IMG/VR virus record: IMGVR_UViG_2541047938_000004
From: a virus
Taxonomy: Duplodnaviria; Heunggongvirae; Uroviricota; Caudoviricetes
Reading direction: 5' to 3' (one strand)
DNA length: 9,579 nt
Part shown: in pieces, positions 1 through 9,579 of the stretch
Layout: the number at the start of each line of letters is the position of its first letter
How positions within the stretch are numbered: position 1 is the stretch's first letter
Made by a program: the position numbers and the translations under genes
Notes under the pieces: model-generated
Databases searched by the model: none
Told to the model about the DNA's origin: nothing
Seen by the model: the letters and a program-made list of their open reading frames with translations, nothing else

Positions 1-1236
1 CTACGATAACCGCGCATTCAACATGGCTACCTGTTCGTCGTTCATGTCATCAATCCACATACCGTAAATTTCATACACCATCTGCGCAGTTTCATGCCCC
101 ATCTGGCTGGCTATAAACGCCGGGTTCGCTCCTGCCGTCAACAGCCAGCAGGCAAAAGTATGCCGCGTATGGTACGGATTACGGCGGCGAATACCAGCAC
201 GTTTTACTGCTGCATTCCATCTCGCACCCAAACTGCTTACCGAGTAATAAGGTTTCTGTTTTCCGTTACACACTCTGGGCATGAAAACAAAATGCAGTTT
301 TTGCTTTTCGGTTCTGCCGTACTCCCGATGATAAAAAGTGATTTCGCTTTTGCGATGATGCCCGGTCAGTTTGTATTGCTCCTTCAGTGCTTCAAGAGCA
401 GGCTGCAGTAGTGTTACCGTCCGGATCCCCGCATTTGTTTTTGGGGGACCGAACATATCCAGTATCGTCAGGTTTCTTCTGACATTCACAACTCCCTTCT
501 CGAAATCCACATCCTCCCACGCCAGAGCAGCCAGTTCCCCGTGACGAAGCCCGGAGTATACGGCAAATTTCCACAAGTTCTGGCTCTGTCCTTTTTCACT
601 TTCCATTAATGCATTGAATTCTGTTTTAGATAACGGGTCAGGCTTTATTCTGTTTCTCTGTAATTTCTTTACTCCTTCAAATGGTTTGGTTGATATAAAT
701 CCCGACTGATACGCAAAACGTAACAACGAACAGAGCAGGGCGATATAGTTATCAACTGTGCGCACGGTTCTTCCTTTTTTGTTGGATCTTGGATTATCCA
801 GGTAAAGCGTTTCTCCATGCAGCAGTTCATTCCGGTAGTTTAAGATATCGCTATAACGAATATGCGATATCGGAGTACTCTCACAAATTATTATCCTGAG
901 TGTTTTTAATTGTGATTTCGTTTTCTTCATTGTGTTTGTTGTTAACTCTGTTTCTTTAATTTTTGTCCAGATATCACAAAGCTCCCCGAACGTTTTTATG
1001 ACCCTCGTTGTCACCATTTTTGCCCCAGTGCTGGACTGGGGAAAACGTCTTAAATACTCAAACTCACCGGAATTGATTTCATGAACTATCAACGCTCTTA
1101 AATTCCCGGCTTTTTTAATGTTACTGTTAGTAACCTCCCAGCCTTTCAATGTTTCCCGACATCGTTTTCCTCGAAACATGAACCAGATGCGAATGTATTT
1201 ACCTCGAATCTCGACACCTGTTGGTAATTTAGACAT
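1..1236 (-). CDS. intR: Tyrosine-type site-specific integrase of a Rac-like lambdoid prophage (411 aa, complete; stop codon is window positions 1-3)
   Basis: ATG-initiated 411-codon ORF. The C-terminal region has the tyrosine recombinase signature (NPYHTRHTFACWLL with H-x-x-R, then a Tyr-containing VYEIYGMW segment). N-terminus MSKLPTGVEIRGKYIRIWF matches my memory of Rac IntR. Followed 1 nt upstream by an excisionase-like gene, as in lambdoid int-xis modules. Confidence 0.93.
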   Translation of the reverse strand: MSKLPTGVEIRGKYIRIWFMFRGKRCRETLKGWEVTNSNIKKAGNLRALIVHEINSGEFEYLRRFPQSSTGAKMVTTRVIKTFGELCDIWTKIKETELTTNTMKKTKSQLKTLRIIICESTPISHIRYSDILNYRNELLHGETLYLDNPRSNKKGRTVRTVDNYIALLCSLLRFAYQSGFISTKPFEGVKKLQRNRIKPDPLSKTEFNALMESEKGQSQNLWKFAVYSGLRHGELAALAWEDVDFEKGVVNVRRNLTILDMFGPPKTNAGIRTVTLLQPALEALKEQYKLTGHHRKSEITFYHREYGRTEKQKLHFVFMPRVCNGKQKPYYSVSSLGARWNAAVKRAGIRRRNPYHTRHTFACWLLTAGANPAFIASQMGHETAQMVYEIYGMWIDDMNDEQVAMLNARLS

Positions 1237-1237
1237 A

Positions 1238-1453
1238 TCATGAGTCTTTGATAAACTGATTTATCTTTGGATAGTTATACCAGATAATCCCTCGCTTACT
1301 GTCTGGCTTCCCTAAAGGAGATACTCGTTTGAAGTGGAAGCCTTCCACCCAACAGTTCTGGCGGTATGCTTCAATTTGTCTGGCCCCCAGACCAGTGCGA
1401 AGCATCAGGCCGTATTCAACCATCCACTCTTCATTAAAGATTACTTGTGCCAT
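1238..1453 (-). CDS. xisR: Excisionase-like small DNA-binding protein (71 aa)
   Basis: The six-frame ORF 1238..1477 begins at TTG; the first ATG is at 1453, preceded by GAGG with 7-nt spacing. Product [34 protein letters not shown]... is small and basic, sits immediately upstream of int with a 1-nt gap, and matches my recollection of Rac YdaQ/XisR. Confidence 0.8.
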
Positions 1454-1552
1454 CGCATCACCTCTGGCAGGCGCCAATGTTAGACTTAAATTGACGCCCG
1501 ATGTTGATTATTAATAATCAGCTATGAAGTTTTAATTTGAATACAATGCAAT

Positions 1553-1741
1553 TCACGAGGACTGAAGTTTCTCGCAATTAAAATTTATCAGTTTTACTTT
1601 CTGCTCTCTGGAAACGCCTGCTTCTTTTTTACCTGAGAGCATTTTTTCGCATTCTGATTTCGTTAGTTTAGATTTTGAATATCTTGTCCAGTTAGTAGGA
1701 GTGCCACCTTCCTTTTCAATAGTGGCGGTAATTTTATACAT
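1553..1741 (-). CDS. ydaC: Small prophage protein YdaC-like (start ambiguous: 1741 with GGAGG SD, or 1753)
   Basis: ORF 1553..1813. The internal ATG at 1741 (MYKITATIEKEGG...) is preceded by GGAGGTG with 5-nt spacing; the alternative ATG at 1753 gives MEVFMYK.... Position between xis and ralR matches Rac ydaC. Function unknown. Confidence 0.65.
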   Translation of the reverse strand: MYKITATIEKEGGTPTNWTRYSKSKLTKSECEKMLSGKKEAGVSREQKVKLINFNCEKLQSS

Positions 1742-1928
1742 GAACACCTCCATTATTATTTCCAGTGGTTCGTTTATTTCATCGTTCGAGTGCTTCTTTT
1801 TCACTTCCACCATAACCGGTTCGGGATTCGCATCCGTTACACTTCGCTCGGTAATATCCTGAAATGGCTTTCACCGTTACTGATGGACAACCACAAAATG
1901 GACATGGTTTAACATTGTCATATCTCAT
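1734..1928 (-). pseudogene. ralR: ralR (lar) restriction-alleviation / DNase toxin frame, interrupted by an in-frame TGA at 1779-1781 (codon 50 of a 64-codon frame); intact N-terminal ORF is 1782..1928 (49 codons)
   Basis: Manual translation from ATG 1928 gives MRYDNVKPCPFCGCPSVTVKAISGYYRAKCNGCESRTGYGGSEKEALER, then TGA, then 14 further sense codons (NKRTTGNNNGGVHV) to TAA at 1734-1736. The total of 64 codons equals the length I recall for K-12 RalR, where this position is Trp (TGG) as I remember it. No ORF of 60 aa or more is listed here in the six-frame track, consistent with the interruption. Confidence 0.7.
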
Positions 1929-1983
1929 AATTTTTCTCATAAAAATATTTCAAGTTGGCGGTGCATTACACCGCCAGGCTGAA

Positions 1984-2793
1984 TTATTCCTCTGAATTAT
2001 CGATTACACTGTATTCCCCGGTTAATACAGAGGAATCTGCAGGATCGATTGTCAGTGGTTCCTTTTCATCCATTGATACTGCACGCTGGATCTCAATTGA
2101 TACGGGCAGATATTTGAACAGGCGACGAATAGCCGTTTTCTTTGCCATTTCTTCCCAGTGAGTTACCCACGGCCCGTTATTACCAGCTTTACTCTGGCTG
2201 CGCACCAGCTCAATCTGTTTGCGCGTCATAACTTCAAACTGAGTACCTCCGTCTTTCAGTCTTGCGACAGCATAGACGTGGGTAACAGGGGCATCTTCGT
2301 TTTCTCCTGGGCGGTGTATTAACTTTTCATCAAGGCCAAATTCGAAATTAAACTCGTCACCTTCACGGACAACACGGGCTGACAGGCTGGCGATTTGACC
2401 TGAACGGCGAGCCAGATCAATCATGCCGCGATAGCCAATGATTAGCTGAACGTTTTTTTTACCGCTCTTTTCGTTTTTATTACCAAAAGGCAGTAAATAT
2501 GCATGACCGAGGGCGCTACCGGGCTCAAGTCCGAGCTGTGAACACTGTACGATTGCACTGACAAAACTCATAGTGTCACAGTTTCCTAACGCCGGAACTT
2601 TACGAATTTCTGTGGTGGCGATACGGATCATACGTTCAGCCGTCATATGGCGTGGAAGAGCTGCTGCCAGTTGCTCTTTCATTGATGGCTGGTTAATAAA
2701 ACTAATCACGTCGTTATTTTTAATTGCTGCTGGTGCACGGTTTCCCTGAGTTTTTTGCAGATCGGCTTTTGCGATTGGTGGTTGCTTAGTCAT
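1984..2793 (-). CDS. recT: RecT single-strand annealing recombinase (269 aa)
   Basis: ORF 1984..2850; ATG at 2793 preceded by AAGGA. Product [41 protein letters not shown]... matches my memory of K-12 RecT. The start overlaps the recE stop by 8 nt. Confidence 0.95.
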
Positions 2794-5386
2794 TTGCATA
2801 TTCCTTAGCCCAGCGGGGCAGTGATAACGTCTTAATAGCTGGCCATTCATCGGTATTGAGGCAGTCAGCCAGGGTTCGCAGATTGCGGTGATATTCCAGC
2901 TGACCTGCCAGTTTTGCTTCTTCGCCCATCATGAAAATTTCAACCGGATAACGTCCGCATTCAATAGTTGTGCTGGCAACCAGAAAAACGAAAGTTGGCT
3001 GCACTCCAAACTGTGCTTCATAACCGTCACTGTAGAATGCATCCTGAACGTGATAGCGGTAGTCGTAATAAGCGGTTTTGAATCGTTGAATATCCGCCGT
3101 AGTTTTCACGTCCATGATCCAGTGAAATTCAGGGATAATTTTGTCCGGACGGCACCGACACAAAATTGCTGTTTCAGGATCTTCCCAGTAAATTGATGAT
3201 TCAGCGTGTCCGGCGCTTTCAACAAGCCATTGCCCCAGCGGCAAAGCCATAACGCTCTGATACATGAGTTCAATTTTCCGGCCTTCTTCGGCAGTGATAA
3301 CCGTTTTTCCTGTGCTTGCGCATTCCCTCAGAAACGCTTTCTCTTCTTCTTTTCCGGAGTTTGTCCGGCGGTTAAATTCAGGTGCTACGATAAAGCGGTT
3401 ACTGAATTCTTCCGGCTCAAGTACCCGGCAGTGGAAAGCGGTTCCTAAATCGAGCGTTTTTGTCTTTGTGGTGTCCACGGGGGCATTTTTACGCCACAAA
3501 TACAGTGCCGGAGTATCAGCAATGTCATCGAGCTGAGACTTACTGACACCGGGACCCGCGTGGTAATTCTCATTCGAAATTCCGTAATAAATACCTGGCT
3601 CTATGTCTTCTACGATTACGGGATCTGCGACTTCGCCAGTTTCATCACTGCAATCGCGATGCGGATCGCTGCCAGCATTCTCATTGTGCGGATGTTCAGC
3701 GCCTTCCATTTCCTCCGGATCATTTTCCTTAGCTTCAACCTGACTCTCTTCATCGAATGTTTCCTGGTATGTTGCGTCGCCCATCACCGCACCACAGTCA
3801 GGGCAGTTATCCCCGCCAGTCTGGCCGCAGGCATTGCAGGCTATTTCCGGTTCCTGTTGCACTACTGGCTCAGGTTGATTCATATCCGGGCTGGTTTTTT
3901 CCGTTTCTGGCTGGTTCTGGTACACACAATCGCGAGTCTGGATCCCCTTTACCCATTTCGGATCGTTCGGGTCGCTAATTCCGTCAACAAATTCACCACG
4001 TGATGCAGCAAGCAATTTATCGGCATCGACAGGATTTTTTGATGGAATGTTTTTCCGGGCTTCATGGAGTTCTGCCCGCAGTTCCTGATATTTCGCATCA
4101 ACAGAATTTACCTGTGACTGAGCATCCAGCGGCTGCGTGTCCTGATGATGTTCAGTTGCGTCCGGTTCCATTGTTTCAGCCTCTCCCTGTTCAACTGCCG
4201 TTGTTCCAGATGGTTGCGGTTTTTCTTCATCATCCTGTTTTCCTTCTTCTGTTACTCGCTGCGGCATCGGGGCAGAGGAGCGACCGCAGGCAATATCCAC
4301 GATTTCCGGATCAGGGTTGGCATGATCGGTTTCAGTCAGTACTTTGTTCAGATATTCAGTGACGTGCGCGGGGATGACCTCGATCCCAATTGGTGCTTCT
4401 TTTACGGACGCAACCACGATGGCGCGGGAATAATCCAGCCCGCCAGGCATGGTGATGAATTTGTCGCGGAAAACAGAAAAGGGCGGTTTATTTTCAGCGA
4501 TAATTTCCTCAATGCGTTTAGCGTGTGCCGGATGAAGGTTATAGATGTCCAGATCCATTGAACGGGCCAGTACGCCAGTGGCTACGTCCCGCGCCAGTGA
4601 CGTCAGATCGTGTACGAAACCTTCGCCGCGATCGGTGAGGTTTCCGCCGCCAGCATTAGCACCGGAAGCCGTGCGAGTGATGTGTGAAACACGATTACCC
4701 TTCATCCACTCTTTTGTCAGCAGTCCTCGATCGGTGTAGTCAGCGTTCAGGTATGCTTCGAAAAAAGCAGTTATCAGTCCCAGGTTTGAATTACCAGGAT
4801 TAGGGAAAACTTTGTCAGTGTCACGAACCAGTTTGTGGAGTTCGCGAATTTCCAGCGGGTCGAGCAGGCTGGTTTTGTGGGAAACAGCCAGGGCAGTAAC
4901 AGCCGGTAGTTCTTCAGCCCGAGCAATGTGTAATGCCTGGAGTCCGTCGCGTGAAACGTGCGTTACCGGTTTTTCGCTGCCGTGTTGAGCAAGCCAACGA
5001 ATGGGCAGTTCCTGGCCAGAAATTGGGAGTAGCATATTCTCCTCAATCTCAGTCATGTCTTCGCCGTTGACGTTGGTATTGCCTTGATAGTGAGCGTTGT
5101 CTGGTGCTGCTCCCGGTTTTAGTTCCCATGTCATGGAGTCTTTGCTGAGTTGATAGCGTTCACTCCAGGTAAAATCGATCTCACCTTCAGCGGGCAGGTC
5201 ATTAACGACAGGAAAATTCGTGGCAACAGCTTTAAAATAGCTGCTCAGTTTTTTACCTGACTTAACGATCAGGTAGTCCAGAGTGGCACAGGTCGATTCA
5301 AAATCGTTGCTTGCCCACAGGACGACGTCAGGTTCACCGGATGATTTTTTCGCTTTCCGTAACAGGAAGAGTGGTTTTGTGCTCAT
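2786..5386 (-). CDS. recE: RecE exodeoxyribonuclease VIII (866 aa)
   Basis: ATG-initiated 866-codon [27 protein letters not shown]... with a C-terminal nuclease domain region (…[32 protein letters not shown]…DVKTT…). Length and sequence match my recollection of K-12 RecE. GAGG lies 10 nt upstream of the ATG. Confidence 0.95.
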
Positions 5387-5457
5387 TGTTTTTTAACCTC
5401 AACTCAGATTAAAATTCGTTTTGTTCAGTGAATGATCTTGCCGGATACACACTGTTC

Positions 5458-5482
5458 ATAGCCTGCGCCATACGCAGGCTAT
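5458..5482. other. Perfect 10-bp inverted repeat (ATAGCCTGCG / CGCAGGCTAT, 5-nt loop CCATA) in the racC-recE intergenic region
   Basis: Read directly from the sequence. It lies 6 nt downstream of the racC stop codon (on the transcribed minus strand) and about 72 nt upstream of the recE ATG. A T-rich run (TTCTTTCAGATTT) follows on the plus strand only. Confidence 0.6.
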
Positions 5483-5487
5483 TTCTT

Positions 5488-5763
5488 TCAGATTTCACCT
5501 TTTAATTTCATTGCAATTAGAGTTGCCAGAAATTCGGCTTTTTTTTCTGCGGGCAGATTCTTTCCGATATGCACCAGGCACATTTTTTTGACACCTTCAT
5601 CAAGTGTTTTTACGTTGCCTGATGGACCATCGATATCAACCACAGTGAATGGGGTTTCTTTATTTTCTGTTTTAATTACGTAGCCAATGCGCTTTCCTTC
5701 CAGATTCACCTCGTGAACAATGTCATCGGTAGTTACAACAGTGGCTTCATAATTGGTAATCAT
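5488..5763 (-). CDS. racC: RacC small prophage protein (91 aa)
   Basis: ORF 5488..5811; ATG at 5763 preceded by AAGGAG. Product MITNYEATVVTTDDIVHEVNLEGKRIGYVIKTENKETPFTVVDIDG... matches my memory of K-12 RacC. Confidence 0.85.
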   Translation of the reverse strand: MITNYEATVVTTDDIVHEVNLEGKRIGYVIKTENKETPFTVVDIDGPSGNVKTLDEGVKKMCLVHIGKNLPAEKKAEFLATLIAMKLKGEI

Positions 5764-5837
5764 GTTTTTCTCCTTAATTAAGGTTGAGCGAATACCTGCC
5801 ATTTCTGGCATAAATTCAGTTTCGAATAGTCAATTAA

Positions 5838-6008
5838 TTAAAGTTCATGTGCCATCTGGTCTTTTTCGGCACAAGCTTCACTGCAATATTTTCTCGGTTC
5901 GTCTTTTGATAAAATCCCGTGCATGAAGTGAAGCATTCTTTCAATAGCTTTGCTTTCTTCAACGTCTTTTTTGCAAAGGTGGTAAGCACATTTTATTTTC
6001 TTAGTCAT
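5838..6008 (-). CDS. ydaE: YdaE-like small Cys/His-rich (probable metal-binding) protein (56 aa)
   Basis: Below the 60-aa track threshold; found by manual translation from ATG 6008 to TAA 5838-5840: [56 protein letters not shown]. It has paired Cys motifs (C-x4-C and C-x3-C). The start overlaps the kilR stop (TGATG). Confidence 0.8.
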   Translation of the reverse strand: MTKKIKCAYHLCKKDVEESKAIERMLHFMHGILSKDEPRKYCSEACAEKDQMAHEL

Positions 6009-6229
6009 CACCATGACTCCGCCTTTACAGGTAAACCATCACGACCGAGGAAGACTTTAATCATGCGGTCAGTAATGCATGTTTTTGTGGTCAGGTTACG
6101 AATATATAGTTTTCGCTTTTTAATATTGTTTGCCGAGGCAATATATGTCCGGCCTTCATGAAGAACATAATCGCCAGGAGTCACACACTGACGTGGTATT
6201 TCATCAGTTCCGAAGTGATGTGCAATCAT
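6008..6229 (-). CDS. kilR: KilR cell-division (FtsZ) inhibitor (73 aa)
   Basis: ORF 6008..6241; ATG at 6229 with GGAG at 6-nt spacing. Product [49 protein letters not shown]... matches my recollection of K-12 KilR. Confidence 0.9.
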
Positions 6230-6410
6230 AATTATCTCCATTTTTACAAATGAACTTTGTTGATGCGGTGCCTGGTGCCTCCAGGTGACTGCAACCAGTT
6301 AACAATTACAGTCGGCTTTCCCACCCAAACCAATAAGGACTAACATGACTTTTAACTGTGCCACGTGCGCTTAGCCGCATTCACCGCATCACAAAATTCA
6401 CTTTAAAAAG

Positions 6411-6452
6411 GGCGGACATCAGCCGAACTTCAAGAAAAAAACTGATGCCGCC
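6411..6452 (-). terminator. Candidate intrinsic terminator on the minus strand (about 11-bp GC-rich stem with one bulge, 19-nt loop, then a T-run)
   Basis: GGCGG(A)CATCAG at 6411-6422 pairs with CTGATGCCGCC at 6442-6452. On the minus strand the stem is followed directly by CTTTTTAAAG (plus 6401-6410). The large loop lowers confidence. Confidence 0.35.
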
Positions 6453-6670
6453 AGGACTACACACAGCAATGTCGTTATTTACAACCGGAGGCGCACTCCC
6501 ACCATTTAAATTTAACAGACAAGACCGACTCTTTATGGATATCGGAAATGCGCCTTCGTGTTGTGCCCGGTTTTATTTCACCACCTCCGGGCTTCGGTGG
6601 TCTCGGCTATACCCCTACAGCGAGAGCTTGTGTTAACATTTCAATACCCTTACAGTTGAGAGTTATTGAT

Positions 6671-7159
6671 ATGTTGGATGTATTTACTCCATTGTTGAAA
6701 CTTTTTGCTAACGAGCCACTCGAAATACTTATGTATACGATTATCATTTTTGGTCTCACTCTCTGGCTGATACCGAAAGAGTTTACTGTCGCATTCAATG
6801 CTTATACTGAAATACCTTGGCTCTTTCAGATTATCGTTTTTGCCTTTTCTTTCGTGGTCGCCATTTCCTTCTCAAGATTGCGAGCACATATTCAAAAGCA
6901 TTATTCATTACTACCAGAGCAACGAGTATTGCTTCGTTTATCTGAGAAAGAAATCGCTGTATTTAAAGATTTCCTTAAAACAGGAAATCTTATTATCACT
7001 TCTCCTTGCCGTAACCCGGTTATGAAAAAATTAGAACGGAAGGGCATCATTCAACATCAGAGTGATAGCGCAAACTGTTCTTATTATCTCGTCACCGAAA
7101 AATACTCCCATTTTATGAAGTTATTCTGGAACAGCAGGAGTAGACGTTTTAATCGTTAG
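6671..7159 (+). CDS. sieB: SieB superinfection exclusion protein (162 aa, predicted membrane protein)
   Basis: ATG at 6671 within ORF 6548..7159. Product MLDVFTPLLKLFANEPLEILMYTIIIFGLTLWLIPKEF... has hydrophobic N-terminal segments and matches my memory of Rac SieB. The 162-aa length equals the K-12 length. Confidence 0.9.
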   Translation: MLDVFTPLLKLFANEPLEILMYTIIIFGLTLWLIPKEFTVAFNAYTEIPWLFQIIVFAFSFVVAISFSRLRAHIQKHYSLLPEQRVLLRLSEKEIAVFKDFLKTGNLIITSPCRNPVMKKLERKGIIQHQSDSANCSYYLVTEKYSHFMKLFWNSRSRRFNR

Positions 7160-7311
7160 CTTACTGTGTGCTTCTCCAACCATCGGCGCGCACCAGTTTC
7201 GGTTTTAAATGTTTTGCTTTTGGTATACGTCATGGCAGTGAACGTTCCATCCTGGTTGGGGAACACGCCGCACACCAGGGATTCGTTGTTGCCGAGGTCG
7301 ATTTTTTGCAT
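7156..7311 (-). CDS. ydaF: YdaF small prophage protein (51 aa)
   Basis: Manual translation from ATG 7311 to TAA 7156-7158: MQKIDLGNNESLVCGVFPNQDGTFTAMTYTKSKTFKTETGARRWLEKHTVS. It is convergent with sieB and overlaps it by 4 nt. Confidence 0.8.
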   Translation of the reverse strand: MQKIDLGNNESLVCGVFPNQDGTFTAMTYTKSKTFKTETGARRWLEKHTVS

Positions 7312-7321
7312 TTTGCGAATC

Positions 7322-7456
7322 TCACATCTTGTTGCTGTGTATAGCGACTTCTGCCTGCCAGAGATCCCAGTCGTTGCTGCGTAAAGCCTGCACAGCCTGG
7401 TTGTAAGTGATACCGCAACAATCCATCAAATACTGAACTACTTCGTAATGCACCAT
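7322..7456 (-). CDS. ydaG: YdaG small prophage protein (44 aa)
   Basis: ORF 7322..7504 begins at GTG; the ATG at 7456 is preceded by GGGGAGAG. Product MVHYEVVQYLMDCCGITYNQAVQALRSNDWDLWQAEVAIHSNKM matches the 44-aa K-12 YdaG as I recall it. Confidence 0.8.
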   Translation of the reverse strand: MVHYEVVQYLMDCCGITYNQAVQALRSNDWDLWQAEVAIHSNKM

Positions 7457-7624
7457 CTTATCTCTCCCCTTAACGCCGGGTGGCGGAACTGAAACCTGCT
7501 GCACTGCAAAATCTGAACCCTGCCGTCATGTTCATACGCCTCGGGCTGGCTACTTAACCCCTGACCACTGCCTGGTAACTCGAAGTATTGCCCTGCGTTC
7601 TGTGGGGCGGGGTGGGTTGGTAGG

Positions 7625-7672
7625 TATATAATGTACTTTGTGTTCATTGATGTAAAGTACTTTAAGTACATT
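7625..7672 (-). promoter_or_regulatory. Candidate leftward (pL-like) promoter with overlapping repressor operator repeats upstream of ydaG
   Basis: Motif copies: ATGTACT 7631-7637, AAGTACT 7655-7661, inverted AAGTACA 7664-7670; AAAGTACTTT at 7654-7663 is a perfect 10-bp palindrome. Minus-strand hexamers TTTACA (plus 7651-7656) and CATTAT (plus 7628-7633) are separated by 17 bp. The same ATGTACT motif recurs in the racR/ydaS region. Confidence 0.45.
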
Positions 7673-7746
7673 TTGTGTGTAAAAAAATGAGATGGGATAA
7701 AGTGAAGCACAAACCCGGAGGGGGACGCTACCGGATTTATGCTGGT

Positions 7747-8166
7747 TTAAGAGGCTTTTTGTTTTTTCTTTCGTGCTAGCTCTTCGTAAATTGCATTGTA
7801 CTTCTGTTTTTTCTCCTCAAGAGTTTTTAAAAGTTCATCTGTCTCACTGTCAGGGAGCTCGTCCAGAAGGTCAATGATGATTTTTTGTCTTGGATTTAAC
7901 TCCTGATAGAAACGTACCTGTCCACTTTCTTCTGTATCCTCTCCCAAAAGATAGGTTGGTGTTGTTCCAATGAGTGTTGCTAATTCCCTTAATTTCTCTC
8001 GGCGAGGAATTGTTTCGCCATTAAACCATTTGCTAACCGCTTTTGGTGTTAATTTCATTCGACGGGCAATTTCTGCCTGCCTTCCATGTTGTTCATAACC
8101 AGCGTTTTCACAGGCTAGCGCAAGCCTACTGGCGAACTCTTTACGCGCTTTATCTTCATGAACCAT
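7747..8166 (-). CDS. racR: RacR prophage repressor (cI analogue), HTH XRE-family DNA-binding protein (139 aa in this sequence)
   Basis: ATG at 8166; the in-frame codon 19 codons upstream (8221-8223) is a stop, so the ORF cannot be longer. Helix-turn-helix signature GRQAEIARRMKLTPKAVSKWFNGETIP. Divergent from a Cro-like gene, as in lambdoid immunity regions. Confidence 0.85.
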   Translation of the reverse strand: MVHEDKARKEFASRLALACENAGYEQHGRQAEIARRMKLTPKAVSKWFNGETIPRREKLRELATLIGTTPTYLLGEDTEESGQVRFYQELNPRQKIIIDLLDELPDSETDELLKTLEEKKQKYNAIYEELARKKKQKAS

Positions 8167-8245
8167 AAGTTCAATGATATTCGCTCTTGAATGTACTGTC
8201 AGTTCTGTTATAGCATGTACTCAAAGTTCACATTGTGAGGGTGAT
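8167..8245. promoter_or_regulatory. Divergent racR / ydaS promoter-operator region (OR/PRM/PR analogue)
   Basis: Direct repeats ATGTACT at 8191-8197 and 8215-8221, 24 bp apart. Predicted racR promoter on the minus strand: CTGACA (plus 8197-8202), 17-bp spacer, TATCAT (plus 8174-8179), ending 7 nt before the racR ATG, implying a leaderless or near-leaderless mRNA like lambda cI from PRM. Predicted ydaS promoter on the plus strand: TTGAAT 8187-8192, 18-bp spacer, TAGCAT 8211-8216. Confidence 0.55.
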
Positions 8246-8500
8246 ATGAACCAGAAAACACTTGAAGATGTAATCAAAACTGTTCGCGTTTCTGTTGTGG
8301 CCGACGTTTGTGGTGTCAGCCAAAGAGCAATCTACAAATGGATGGATAACGGAAAATTGCCTCGCACAGAATATACCGGCGAAACAAATTACGCTGAAAA
8401 AATCGCTCATGCATCAAACGGATTATTTTCTGCTGATGTAATTTTAACTATTGGCAGAAATAAAACTACTACGAAAAAGCTGATGGGAGTTGATTCATGA
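8246..8500 (+). CDS. ydaS: YdaS Cro-like HTH regulator (84 aa from ATG 8246; the ORF also allows a 108-aa form from ATG 8174)
   Basis: ATG 8246 is preceded by GAGG (8237-8240) with 5-nt spacing. The upstream ATG 8174 lies inside the predicted racR -10 element, 8 nt from the divergent racR start, and has no SD. Product MNQKTLEDVIKTVRVSVVADVCGVSQRAIYKWMDNGKLP... has an HTH-like segment. Stop overlaps the ydaT start (ATGA). Confidence 0.8.
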   Translation: MNQKTLEDVIKTVRVSVVADVCGVSQRAIYKWMDNGKLPRTEYTGETNYAEKIAHASNGLFSADVILTIGRNKTTTKKLMGVDS

Positions 8501-8919
8501 AAATCAAGCATGAGCACATCGAGTCAGTGTTGTTAGCCCTGGCAGCCGAAAAAGGGCAGGCATGGGTAGCCAATGCCATTACTGAAGAATATCTGCGCCA
8601 GGGGGGCGGCGAATTGCCCCTGGTACCAGGCAAGGACTGGAATAATCAGCAGAATATCTATCACCGTTGGTTGAAAGGTGAAACGAAAACGCAAAGAGAA
8701 AAAATTCAGAAGCTGATCCCAGCAATTCTGGCAATCCTTCCGCGCGAGCTGCGTCACCGACTCTGCATCTTCGATACCCTGGAACGCCGTGCATTACTGG
8801 CGGCGCAGGAAGCGTTAAGTACGGCAATTGATGCGCATGATGATGCAGTCCAAGCCGTTTACCGGAAAGCGCATTTCAGCGGCGGCGGGTCTTCCGACGA
8901 TTCTGTCATTGTTCATTAA
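8497..8919 (+). CDS. ydaT: YdaT (140 aa), reported as a CII-like regulator that is toxic when derepressed
   Basis: ATG-initiated 140-codon ORF, MKIKHEHIESVLLALAAEKGQAWVANAITEEYLRQGGGELPLVPGKDWNNQQ..., coupled to ydaS by ATGA overlap. The 140-aa length equals K-12 YdaT. Confidence 0.85.
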   Translation: MKIKHEHIESVLLALAAEKGQAWVANAITEEYLRQGGGELPLVPGKDWNNQQNIYHRWLKGETKTQREKIQKLIPAILAILPRELRHRLCIFDTLERRALLAAQEALSTAIDAHDDAVQAVYRKAHFSGGGSSDDSVIVH

Positions 8920-8982
8920 GCAAAAGTTTCCATGCTGTTTGTGCTTATTCTAAGCCACCGGGCAGCATCATACGGGGCAATT

Positions 8983-9579
8983 ATGGCCGCATTACCATAC
9001 ATGCAACTGTACATAGCTGATTACCTGGCTGACACCATGCATTTGTCAGCAGAGGAGCATGGTGCGTATTTGTTGCTGATGTTCAATTACTGGCAAACAG
9101 GAAAGCCAATACCTAAAAACAGGCTGGCAAAAATTGCCCGTCTGACTAACGAGCGATGGGCTGATGTTGAACCATCCTTGCAGGAGTTTTTTTGCGATAA
9201 CGGCGAGGAATGGGTGCATCTTCGGATTGAGGAAGATCTGGCATCAGTCAGGGAAAAATTAACCAAAAAATCAGCCGCAGGAAAAGCATCTGTTCAGGCC
9301 AGAAGAAGCAGAAAGGAAGCAGATGTTCAAACAAAACAAGAGAGAAATTTAACAGGTGTTCAAACAGATGTTGAAGTGGTGTTTGAACATGATGTCAACA
9401 CAAAGGCAACTAATAAAGATACAGATAAAGATCTAAAAACAGATCCCCCCCTAAATCCCCCTCGGGGGAATCGAGGTGTCAAAAAGTTTGACCCTCTGGA
9501 TATTGCTTTGTCCGCTTTGTGCCAGGAGCAGACGTTACTAACATCTATCTGCATCAATCTGTGGGGAGCAGAACCGTGA
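8983..9579 (+). CDS. ydaU: YdaU-family putative replication initiator (lambda O-like position), 198 aa from ATG 8983; stop TGA is the last codon of the window
   Basis: ORF 8932..9579. ATG 8983 (MAALPYMQLYIADYLADTMHLSAEEHGAYLLLMFNYWQTGKPIPKNRLAKIARL...) is preceded by a GGGG run; ATG 8932 has no SD. The coding sequence contains an iteron-like repeat array and AT-rich block (separate feature), as lambda O contains ori. Functional assignment is by position and architecture; the name is from my recollection of Rac. Confidence 0.7.
   Translation: MAALPYMQLYIADYLADTMHLSAEEHGAYLLLMFNYWQTGKPIPKNRLAKIARLTNERWADVEPSLQEFFCDNGEEWVHLRIEEDLASVREKLTKKSAAGKASVQARRSRKEADVQTKQERNLTGVQTDVEVVFEHDVNTKATNKDTDKDLKTDPPLNPPRGNRGVKKFDPLDIALSALCQEQTLLTSICINLWGAEP
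9283..9476 (+). other. Candidate replication origin embedded in ydaU: direct repeats at 33-bp spacing, one inverted copy, AT-rich block, GC-rich dyad
   Basis: TGTTCA at 9291, 9324 and 9357 (exactly 33 bp apart). The 10-mer TGTTCAAACA occurs at 9324-9333 and 9357-9366, with its inverted copy TGTTTGAACA at 9380-9389. The block 9401-9444 is about 73 percent A+T. It is followed by the GC-rich dyad CCCCC-TC-GGGGG (9457-9468) within 9445-9476. Confidence 0.45.

Follow-up and report, generated by a model that had tools for sequence, protein, structure and literature searches.

Does the cluster of GTAC-containing repeats upstream of ydaG in virus record IMGVR_UViG_2541047938_000004 belong to a genetic switch, and if so, which repressor does it answer to? 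The stretch analysed, from here on the window, is 9,579 nt long and, judging from its best database matches and their RefSeq annotation, represents a Rac-like prophage of Escherichia coli. The cluster sits within the 290 bp that separate ydaG from the 3' terminus of a gene for a 139-aa helix-turn-helix (HTH) protein, about 175 bp from the ydaG ATG (7456). A preliminary description, made from the sequence alone, had proposed an OL/pL analogue under the control of RacR. We place a probability of about 0.85 on the reading that positions 7628-7671 comprise the early-left promoter (PL) and two left operators (OL1 and OL2) of a Rac-like prophage with an HK022-family immunity cassette, in which case the element appears to be an ordinary lambdoid switch element of that family. 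The analogy with OL/pL holds up well, in that one putative operator family recurs at both ends of the repressor gene and overlaps a predicted leftward sigma-70 promoter. What does not hold is the identity of the repressor.

The three 7-mers reported earlier, ATGTACT (7631-7637), AAGTACT (7655-7661) and AAGTACA (7664-7670), were all found by direct reading and by pattern searches. Their GTAC cores start at 7633, 7657 and 7666, which gives the first two the 24-bp spacing that had been described. The anatomy read into these copies has to be revised, however. Since each ATGTAC has a GTWC five bases further on, the 7-mers are most simply taken as half-sites of two 17-bp dyads of the form ATGTAC-N5-GTWCAT. 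The first dyad joins 7631-7636 to GTTCAT at 7642-7647, a partner that had been overlooked, and the second joins AAGTAC (7655-7660) to GTACAT (7666-7671). The resulting dyads, OL1 and OL2 (Table 1), are centred at 7639 and 7663, 24 bp apart. The perfect 10-bp palindrome AAAGTACTTT, although present at 7654-7663 as stated, is incidental: it is a self-complementary half-site core together with its flanks, and the dyad axis of OL2 falls at 7663 and not at the palindrome centre (7658/7659). The minus-strand hexamers TTTACA and CATTAT, with their 17-nt spacer, were returned by the promoter scan at 7656..7628, in agreement with the earlier proposal. OL1 fills the spacer of this promoter and overlaps its -10 (7628-7633), and OL2 overlaps the upstream end of the -35 (7651-7656). 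The promoter is thus situated past the 3' end of the repressor gene, the minus-strand order being repressor (7747-8166), hexamers (7656..7628) and ydaG (7456..7322), and the operator family that recurs on the other side of the repressor gene here faces ydaG-ydaF. To that extent the idea of one repressor shared by both directions stands, although the repressor would not be RacR.

It is the complete dyad, and not its half-site, that is unevenly distributed. The pattern WRGTACW is not enriched window-wide (8 matches versus 5.1 expected, with 32 of 200 shuffles reaching 8), and GTAC occurs 20 times versus 19.4 expected. By contrast, ATGTAC-N5-GTWC with at most one mismatch gives seven matches at five sites versus 0.68 expected, a count reached in 0 of 200 shuffles, and all of these matches fall at one or the other end of the repressor gene, within 7631-7671 or 8158-8229. 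The 15-mer form TGWAC-N5-GTWCA, also allowing one mismatch, marks 7632-7646, 7656-7670, 8159-8173, 8192-8206 and 8216-8230, plus one site inside recE; a search of the window with this pattern found no OFR operator.

The dyads have annotated counterparts in phage HK022. Pairwise BLAST aligns window positions 7627-7687 with 2196-2256 of HK022 record X16093.1 at 80.3% identity over 61 nt (E 4e-11), and the record annotates the aligned bases as pL -10, oL, pL -35 and oL (Oberto et al. 1989, X16093.1; for the pL/oL operators see also Carlson and Little 1993, as cited in PMC8053113). The collinear pL sequences are cttatgATGTACTTAAAGTTCATtaaTGTAAAGTACCAATAGTACATttta in HK022 and tatataATGTACTTTGTGTTCATtgaTGTAAAGTACTTTAAGTACATtttg in the window. 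OL1 is collinear with the HK022 oL at 2201-2215 and OL2 with that at 2225-2239. The HK022 pL -35, which is the reverse complement of 2220-2225, reads TTTACA as it does here, and the -10, the reverse complement of 2197-2202, reads CATCAT versus CATTAT in the window. On the OR side, a sensitive comparison with phage records matched 8006-8416 to the cI-OR-cro regions of HK022, HK75 and O276 at about 70% identity.

Natural variation respects the proposed sites. The 78 IMG/VR loci that encode the same repressor resolve into 42 haplotypes of the OL region, across which the ATGTAC of OL2 and the TGAAC of OL1 are invariant, the OL1 half-sites are nearly so, and the -35 hexamer is conserved. Variation recurs at every one of the five central bases of OL2, at two bases in the centre of OL1 and in the spacer between the operators, and several haplotypes carry the HK022-form -10, CATCAT. 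Within 7628-7671, 6 of the 29 half-site or hexamer positions vary versus 12 of the 15 others (Fisher P = 2.6e-4). When the sites are compared with the other non-coding positions of 7623-7746, the mean minor-haplotype count is 0.34 versus 1.99.

Several results weigh against assigning PL and its operators to this cluster. The binary contrast of varying positions, when drawn against the whole of non-coding 7623-7746, is not significant (P = 0.35). The promoter scan does not rise above chance (2 sites versus 2.7 expected), and CATTAT is a weak -10. No convincing third left operator (OL3) was found, as 7672-7746 contains no site at one mismatch or fewer, and the stretch around 7677-7695 bears only a weak resemblance to the HK75 oL3 position. 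Finally, Pfam searches show that a Peptidase_S24 domain is absent from the 139-aa repressor.

Three other accounts of the cluster draw on the same evidence. The main role of the sites could be to tune the repressor promoter (PRM) and the rightward promoter (PR) at the right operators (OR) from a distance, as a looping partner or sink, and not to serve as a repressible promoter of the left operon. Cooperative binding of HK022 CI to OL and OR, with looping between the two in vivo, is indeed known (PMC8053113), and the distance from OL to OR is only ~560 bp here. Nevertheless, a looping role does not exclude control of PL, the promoter hexamers are conserved alongside the operators, and in all immunity classes the cassette junction is exactly where the leader and left operon start, as described below; looping as the chief function is therefore improbable. 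Equally hard to favour is a plus-strand promoter built on the TATAAT that exists at the cluster. The direct repeat 7625-7646 resembles the block of PR -10 and OR1 at 8209-8230 (repeat family D1), but the hexamer 17 bp upstream, GGGGCG, is not an acceptable -35, HK022 has no TATAAT at the equivalent position, a T/C polymorphism at 7630 breaks the motif in some haplotypes, and in other immunity classes the strong promoter is always directed into the leader. Weaker still is the view that the motifs are no more than an AT-rich repeat arisen by chance or a group of restriction sites (ScaI AGTACT, RsaI GTAC) with no regulatory role: the unenriched WRGTACW and GTAC counts and the chance-level yield of the promoter scan agree with it, but the 15-mer dyad is strongly enriched and restricted to both ends of the repressor gene, it is homologous to annotated HK022 operators, and its half-sites are conserved while its centres vary.

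If 7628-7671 is PL with OL1 and OL2, dimers of the 139-aa repressor would bind both 17-bp dyads through an HK022-CI-like HTH. Repressor on OL1 would cover the spacer and part of the -10, and on OL2 the upstream end of the -35. With their centres 24 bp apart, as are those of OR1 and OR2, the dyads would permit cooperative occupancy, and this in turn would exclude RNA polymerase from TTTACA-17-CATTAT. In a lysogen the leftward operon would be silenced, beginning with ydaG and ydaF and then probably kilR, ydaE, racC and recET. Following induction, the HK022-Cro-like protein is likely to occupy these sites too, and OL-OR looping across the ~560 bp is plausible. The transcript would begin at about 7621-7623, where the cassette meets the shared left arm, and its initial ~100 nt would form the conserved hairpin domain described below. 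Binding, repression, cooperativity, looping and the position of +1 are all predictions of the analysis.

Comparison with the Rac prophage of E. coli K-12 bears on which repressor is involved. BLAST comparison of the window with K-12 Rac shows 98.7% identity for 1-7622 and 99.1% for 8491-9510, and no DNA homology across 7623-8490. Because homology ends at 7622/7623 and restarts at 8491, the intervening segment is a replaced immunity cassette, the left edge of which lies 5-6 bp downstream of the proposed PL -10. This cassette is carried by 1049 of 5426 complete E. coli genomes, by the strain of NZ_CP023366 for instance, and also occurs in sequenced phages, such as Tritos and vB_EcoS-666R9. Its 139-aa repressor shares 12 of 33 residues with K-12 RacR, in the HTH stretch only, and its 84-aa cro-like protein barely resembles YdaS. 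The footprinted operator of K-12 RacR is (T/A)TAGGC-n3-GCCTA(T/A) (PMC9638921), and the motif TAGGC-n3-GCCTA is absent from window positions 7600-7700 and 8150-8250. K-12 Rac has ATTAGGC/GCCTAAT repeats both upstream of ydaG and between racR and ydaS, and they include a near-identical inverted 24-mer containing TTGACA. Since K-12 has its own motif at both of the equivalent places, the operators seem to travel with the repressor, as expected of an immunity region. The preliminary description was therefore mistaken in naming RacR, and K-12 RacR footprinting on this cassette would be expected to fail. That the sites are operators through which a K-12-type RacR represses ydaG-ydaF is the least credible explanation of all and, as far as the sequence can tell, is already refuted. 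In its favour are the ~98-99% identity of the flanking Rac genes to K-12 and the derepression of ydaG and ydaF on K-12 RacR depletion (PMC11014345); against it count a cassette without DNA homology to K-12 Rac, a repressor related to RacR only in its HTH stretch, and a RacR operator (PMC9638921) seen in the K-12 OL/OR regions but not in the window.

The K-12 sequence upstream of ydaG (8620-8700 of locus L002) itself contains an apparent RacR OL set, with three GCCTAAT-type repeats and the promoter TTGACA-17-TATAGT, the -10 of which ends 6 nt before the same junction. This OL copy is not mentioned in PMC9638921 or PMC11879457. The RacR operators described in the papers cited here are those of the racR-ydaS intergenic region only (PMC5700373, PMC9638921), and the RacR regulon has been termed uncharacterised (PMC11014345). 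On K-12 RacR depletion, ydaG, ydaF, kilR, ydaE, racC, and even ydaC and ralA, rise 40-70-fold (PMC11014345).

The leader that follows PL is shared by K-12, which has another immunity type, and by Tritos, which has other left-arm genes, and further phages share the leader alone; it seems to behave as an independent mosaic module. An IMG/VR scan with the leader core raised the loci with upstream sequence to 186, in which the 100 nt preceding the leader fall into ~21 unrelated classes. Most class representatives have a sigma-70 promoter directed into the leader, with a -10 that ends 5-8 nt before the junction, and several classes have class-specific 9-mers that are repeated at the OR position. 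This distance from -10 to junction implies that the junction lies close to the PL +1 in most classes, and, as it recurs across immunity classes, it lends support to the ~165-nt leader proposed earlier. Joining of the leader to ~21 immunity cassettes (L092-L211) also means that recombination junctions cluster at the PL +1. The 3' part of the leader (7457-7521, minus strand) is a replaceable insert, with at least four unrelated sequences found between a conserved GACGGC and GTTCCGCC(A)CCCGGCGTTAAGGGG, and the first gene beyond the leader varies by locus (ydaG, ydfB/ydfC-type and others). An E. coli Rac-like early region also occurs in a record named Actinobacillus phage vB_Apl-pPE4 (locus L090, PP818812.1), an odd host attribution; it includes recE, kil, a DicA-type repressor, ydaT and the leader at 79% identity.

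A further suggestion of the preliminary description, that the leader might hold RNA structure, is borne out by covariation. The element (Table 1) consists of three helices, of which P1 is capped by the loop CAAUAC-NNN-GAGUUA and followed by a 34-nt near-invariant tract, AAGUAGCCAGCCYGAGGCNNANGAACAUGAMGGC. Diverged copies show compensatory changes. In an 18-sequence gapless alignment, anchored on the invariant parts, the three-helix structure, which was derived from the same sequences used to test it, pairs 84.9% of cells versus 65.5% in shuffles (0 of 500 as high). Changes on both sides are seen in 13 of 14 pairs, and the covariation score is 0.57 versus 0.22 in shuffles (0 of 500) and 0.07-0.16 with partners slid. 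RNAalifold independently recovers P1 and P2, and G-U/G-C alternations in the helix arms fit the PL-sense strand. Folding of the whole leader gives a minimum free energy no better than that of shuffles (z = +1.0), and thermodynamics alone would therefore miss the element. Rfam has no match in the motif cluster or leader (6200-8600, with a lax search of 7440-7640).

This element is widespread. An exact copy of its 30-nt core occurs in each of 46 stretches taken from species-representative genomes, which belong to Arsenophonus, Serratia, Symbiopectobacterium, Pectobacterium, Winslowiella, Superficieibacter, Escherichia and Shigella, and the element is present in 3752 of 5426 (69%) complete E. coli genomes, with up to seven copies each. 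Among the 30 RefSeq matches listed, none has an annotation under the element, and a literature search with leader-core sequence strings returned only unrelated primer matches. With the covariance model (R1), each prophage region searched yields a single copy and the PR side none, and there is no match in the HK022, HK75 and HK639 loci. Small open reading frames (ORFs) in the invariant tract were rejected because of stop codons and non-synonymous changes, judged by eye in the frames of both strands. A put-like reading suggested by the local resemblance of CGGCAGGGUUCAG to putL CGGCGGGUUCAGG failed against the HK75 and HK639 put RNAs. A boxA-like string (CGCTCTTTAACA-like) is absent from 7457-7622. 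In Arsenophonus and Symbiopectobacterium the element has a boxA after it, and a boxB-like hairpin is also seen with many of the Arsenophonus copies; a lambda-type nutL reading of the leader was rejected, as boxA and boxB are separate from the element in these relatives and follow it, which argues that the element is not itself a nut site. Five Arsenophonus/Phlomobacter loci (L212, L221, L240, L243 and L252) have two same-strand copies, 1.8-2.7 kb apart, and in the first four each copy is followed by a boxA and then a hairpin of differing type. Such pairs could represent remnants of prophages in tandem or a duplication of early-left modules.

We consider it an even call whether the 95-nt domain is a previously undescribed class of cis-acting phage RNA. 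It could bind polymerase or another factor and govern elongation, termination or stability of the early-left operon, although antitermination, stability and factor binding are guesses at this point. Loss of RacR in K-12 raises the expression of genes up to ~6 kb downstream, which would fit processive read-through. A leader RNA at the start of an operon with kilR, recET and ralR could explain post-promoter control of a toxic operon, and it is the part of this locus that deserves follow-up.

Like its operators, the repressor of the cassette points to HK022, in part. BLASTP gives 47% identity to HK022 CI over 99 aa (E 6e-32); the alignment ends at residue 102, and similarity fades beyond about residue 75. 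The recognition helices are nearly the same (TPKAVSKWFNGE in the repressor, TPKAISKWFNGE in HK022 CI). The protein is chimeric (noted for 7747-8005, minus strand), with an HK022-CI-like HTH domain joined to a ~60-residue helical C-terminus unrelated to HK022 CI. Pfam returns HTH families only (HTH_3 among them), plus a sub-threshold MgtE_N match, and a search of solved structures found only a weak match to the P22 C2 HTH. In HK022 CI and lambda CI, the S24 C-terminal domain mediates cooperativity. Without it, cooperative binding and looping by the present repressor would depend on its uncharacterised helical C-terminus. For the same reason, the lack of an S24 (LexA-like) domain, RecA-mediated cleavage is not expected, and induction probably proceeds via an antirepressor or another route.

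At the right end, the OR3-like operator overlaps the repressor start codon (8166..8164), and the OR2-like operator lies between the PR -35 and -10 and overlaps the candidate PRM -35. The candidate PRM -10 (TATCAT, 8179..8174) is inside the OR3-like site and ends 8 nt before the repressor ATG (8166), and the repressor mRNA from this promoter would consequently be leaderless or nearly so. Such mRNAs have been reported for lambda cI, racR and paaR2.

Table 1. Positions of the switch elements, leader and adjacent genes in the window.
Feature	Position	Strand	Details
ydaF	7156-7311	-	
ydaG	7322-7456	-	start ATG at 7456
PL 5' leader	7457-7622	-	reaches ydaG start codon
Structured RNA element	7522-7616	-	95 nt; helices P2b, P2, P1; covariance model 109.6 bits
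Predicted PL start	7621-7623	-	coincides with cassette left junction 7622/7623
PL -10 (predicted)	7628..7633	-	CATTAT (promoter scan); CATCAT in some haplotypes
OL1 (predicted)	7631-7647		17-bp pseudo-dyad ATGTAC-TTTGT-GTTCAT; 15-mer core 7632-7646; 0 mismatches to pattern
PL -35 (predicted)	7651..7656	-	TTTACA (promoter scan)
OL2 (predicted)	7655-7671		17-bp; minus-strand reading ATGTAC-TTAAA-GTACTT
Possible weak repressor-transcript terminator	7714..7735	-	UCCGG, 12-nt loop, CCGGG, then GUUUGUGCUU; direct reading
Immunity repressor	7747-8166	-	139 aa; WP_000233320.1
OR3-like operator	8158-8174		core TGAACCATAAGTTCA, identical to HK022 oR3 (8159-8173)
Candidate PRM	8174..8202	-	CTGACA-17-TATCAT (promoter scan)
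Candidate PR	8187..8214	+	TTGAAT-16-TATAGC, upstream TG; aligned to HK022 pR (TTGACT / CATAAT)
OR2-like operator	8191-8207		core TGTACTGTCAGTTCT
OR1-like operator	8215-8231		core TGTACTCAAAGTTCA; 24 bp from OR2
cro-like gene	8246-8500	+	84 aa; 62% identical to HK022 Cro

The gene order of the window is intR, xisR, rcbA, ralR, recT, recE, racC, ydaE, kilR, sieB, ydaF and ydaG, followed by the 139-aa HTH gene, the 84-aa HTH gene, ydaT and ydaU. A 90-aa ORF that spans the operators (7438-7710, minus strand) was rejected as a gene; it has no Pfam match and crosses the mosaic junction. The possible terminator listed in Table 1 was not called by the terminator scan; across haplotypes its stem is conserved and its loop variable. 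Between kilR and sieB, 6222-6465 (minus strand) has sub-threshold Rfam matches to DicF and STnc100. The DicF-like match (6410-6465, 39 bits versus a gathering score of 48) falls inside the position of the small RNA kilS annotated in K-12, and the STnc100 match covers 6222-6408.

Among known systems, HK022 is the closest to the switch proposed here. The two share the order -10, operator, -35, operator with a 17-nt spacer, the operator consensus TGWAC-N5-GTWCA at 24-bp spacing, a homologous repressor HTH domain and Cro, and an identical oR3 core, and the other two OR sites and the pR hexamers also align. They differ in that the repressor of the window, at 139 aa, has a short, different helical C-terminus without S24, that HK022 has an OL3 whereas no recognisable OL3 or OFR is seen in the window, and that a Rac-type leader, not putL and nun, follows PL. 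The combination raises the question of whether an HK022-type DNA-binding domain on a non-cleavable C-terminus still binds cooperatively and is cross-immune with HK022. The leader element resembles the put RNAs of HK022 and HK639 as a structured RNA immediately downstream of a lambdoid PL, with no N gene there. It has no sequence similarity to them (BLAST, and by eye for HK75/HK639), and put occurs as putL and putR, whereas the element is single-copy in each region searched. Phage lambda likewise has 17-bp dyads ~24 bp apart that overlap the early-left -10 and -35, with the repressor gene between them and OR. The sequences are not similar, however, and lambda has three operators versus the two seen here, and nutL and N, which do not follow PL in the window.

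The PaaR2/YdaS switch of CP-933P, another Rac/YdaT-type lambdoid prophage with a cI-like repressor lacking a peptidase domain, is a functional parallel: its repressor and Cro-like protein regulate PR, PRM and a distal PL933P with matching operators OL1-3 (PMC8630535). Unlike the window, it has operators with GTTTAGTAA consensus repeats, other proteins and an added toxin-antitoxin pair, and repression of its PL has been demonstrated by reporters (PMC8630535), whereas the window is known here from sequence alone. K-12 Rac, finally, occupies the same prophage backbone position, with operators flanking its repressor gene on either side, a promoter that ends at the same junction and a probable leaderless repressor mRNA. 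Its repressor, cro-like protein and operator sequence are all unrelated to those of the window, which suggests that the two are heteroimmune. The operators described here would fix the switch anatomy of a very common Rac-like immunity type. The 'Rac repressor' thus differs among strains, and results obtained with K-12 RacR would not be transferable to this type.

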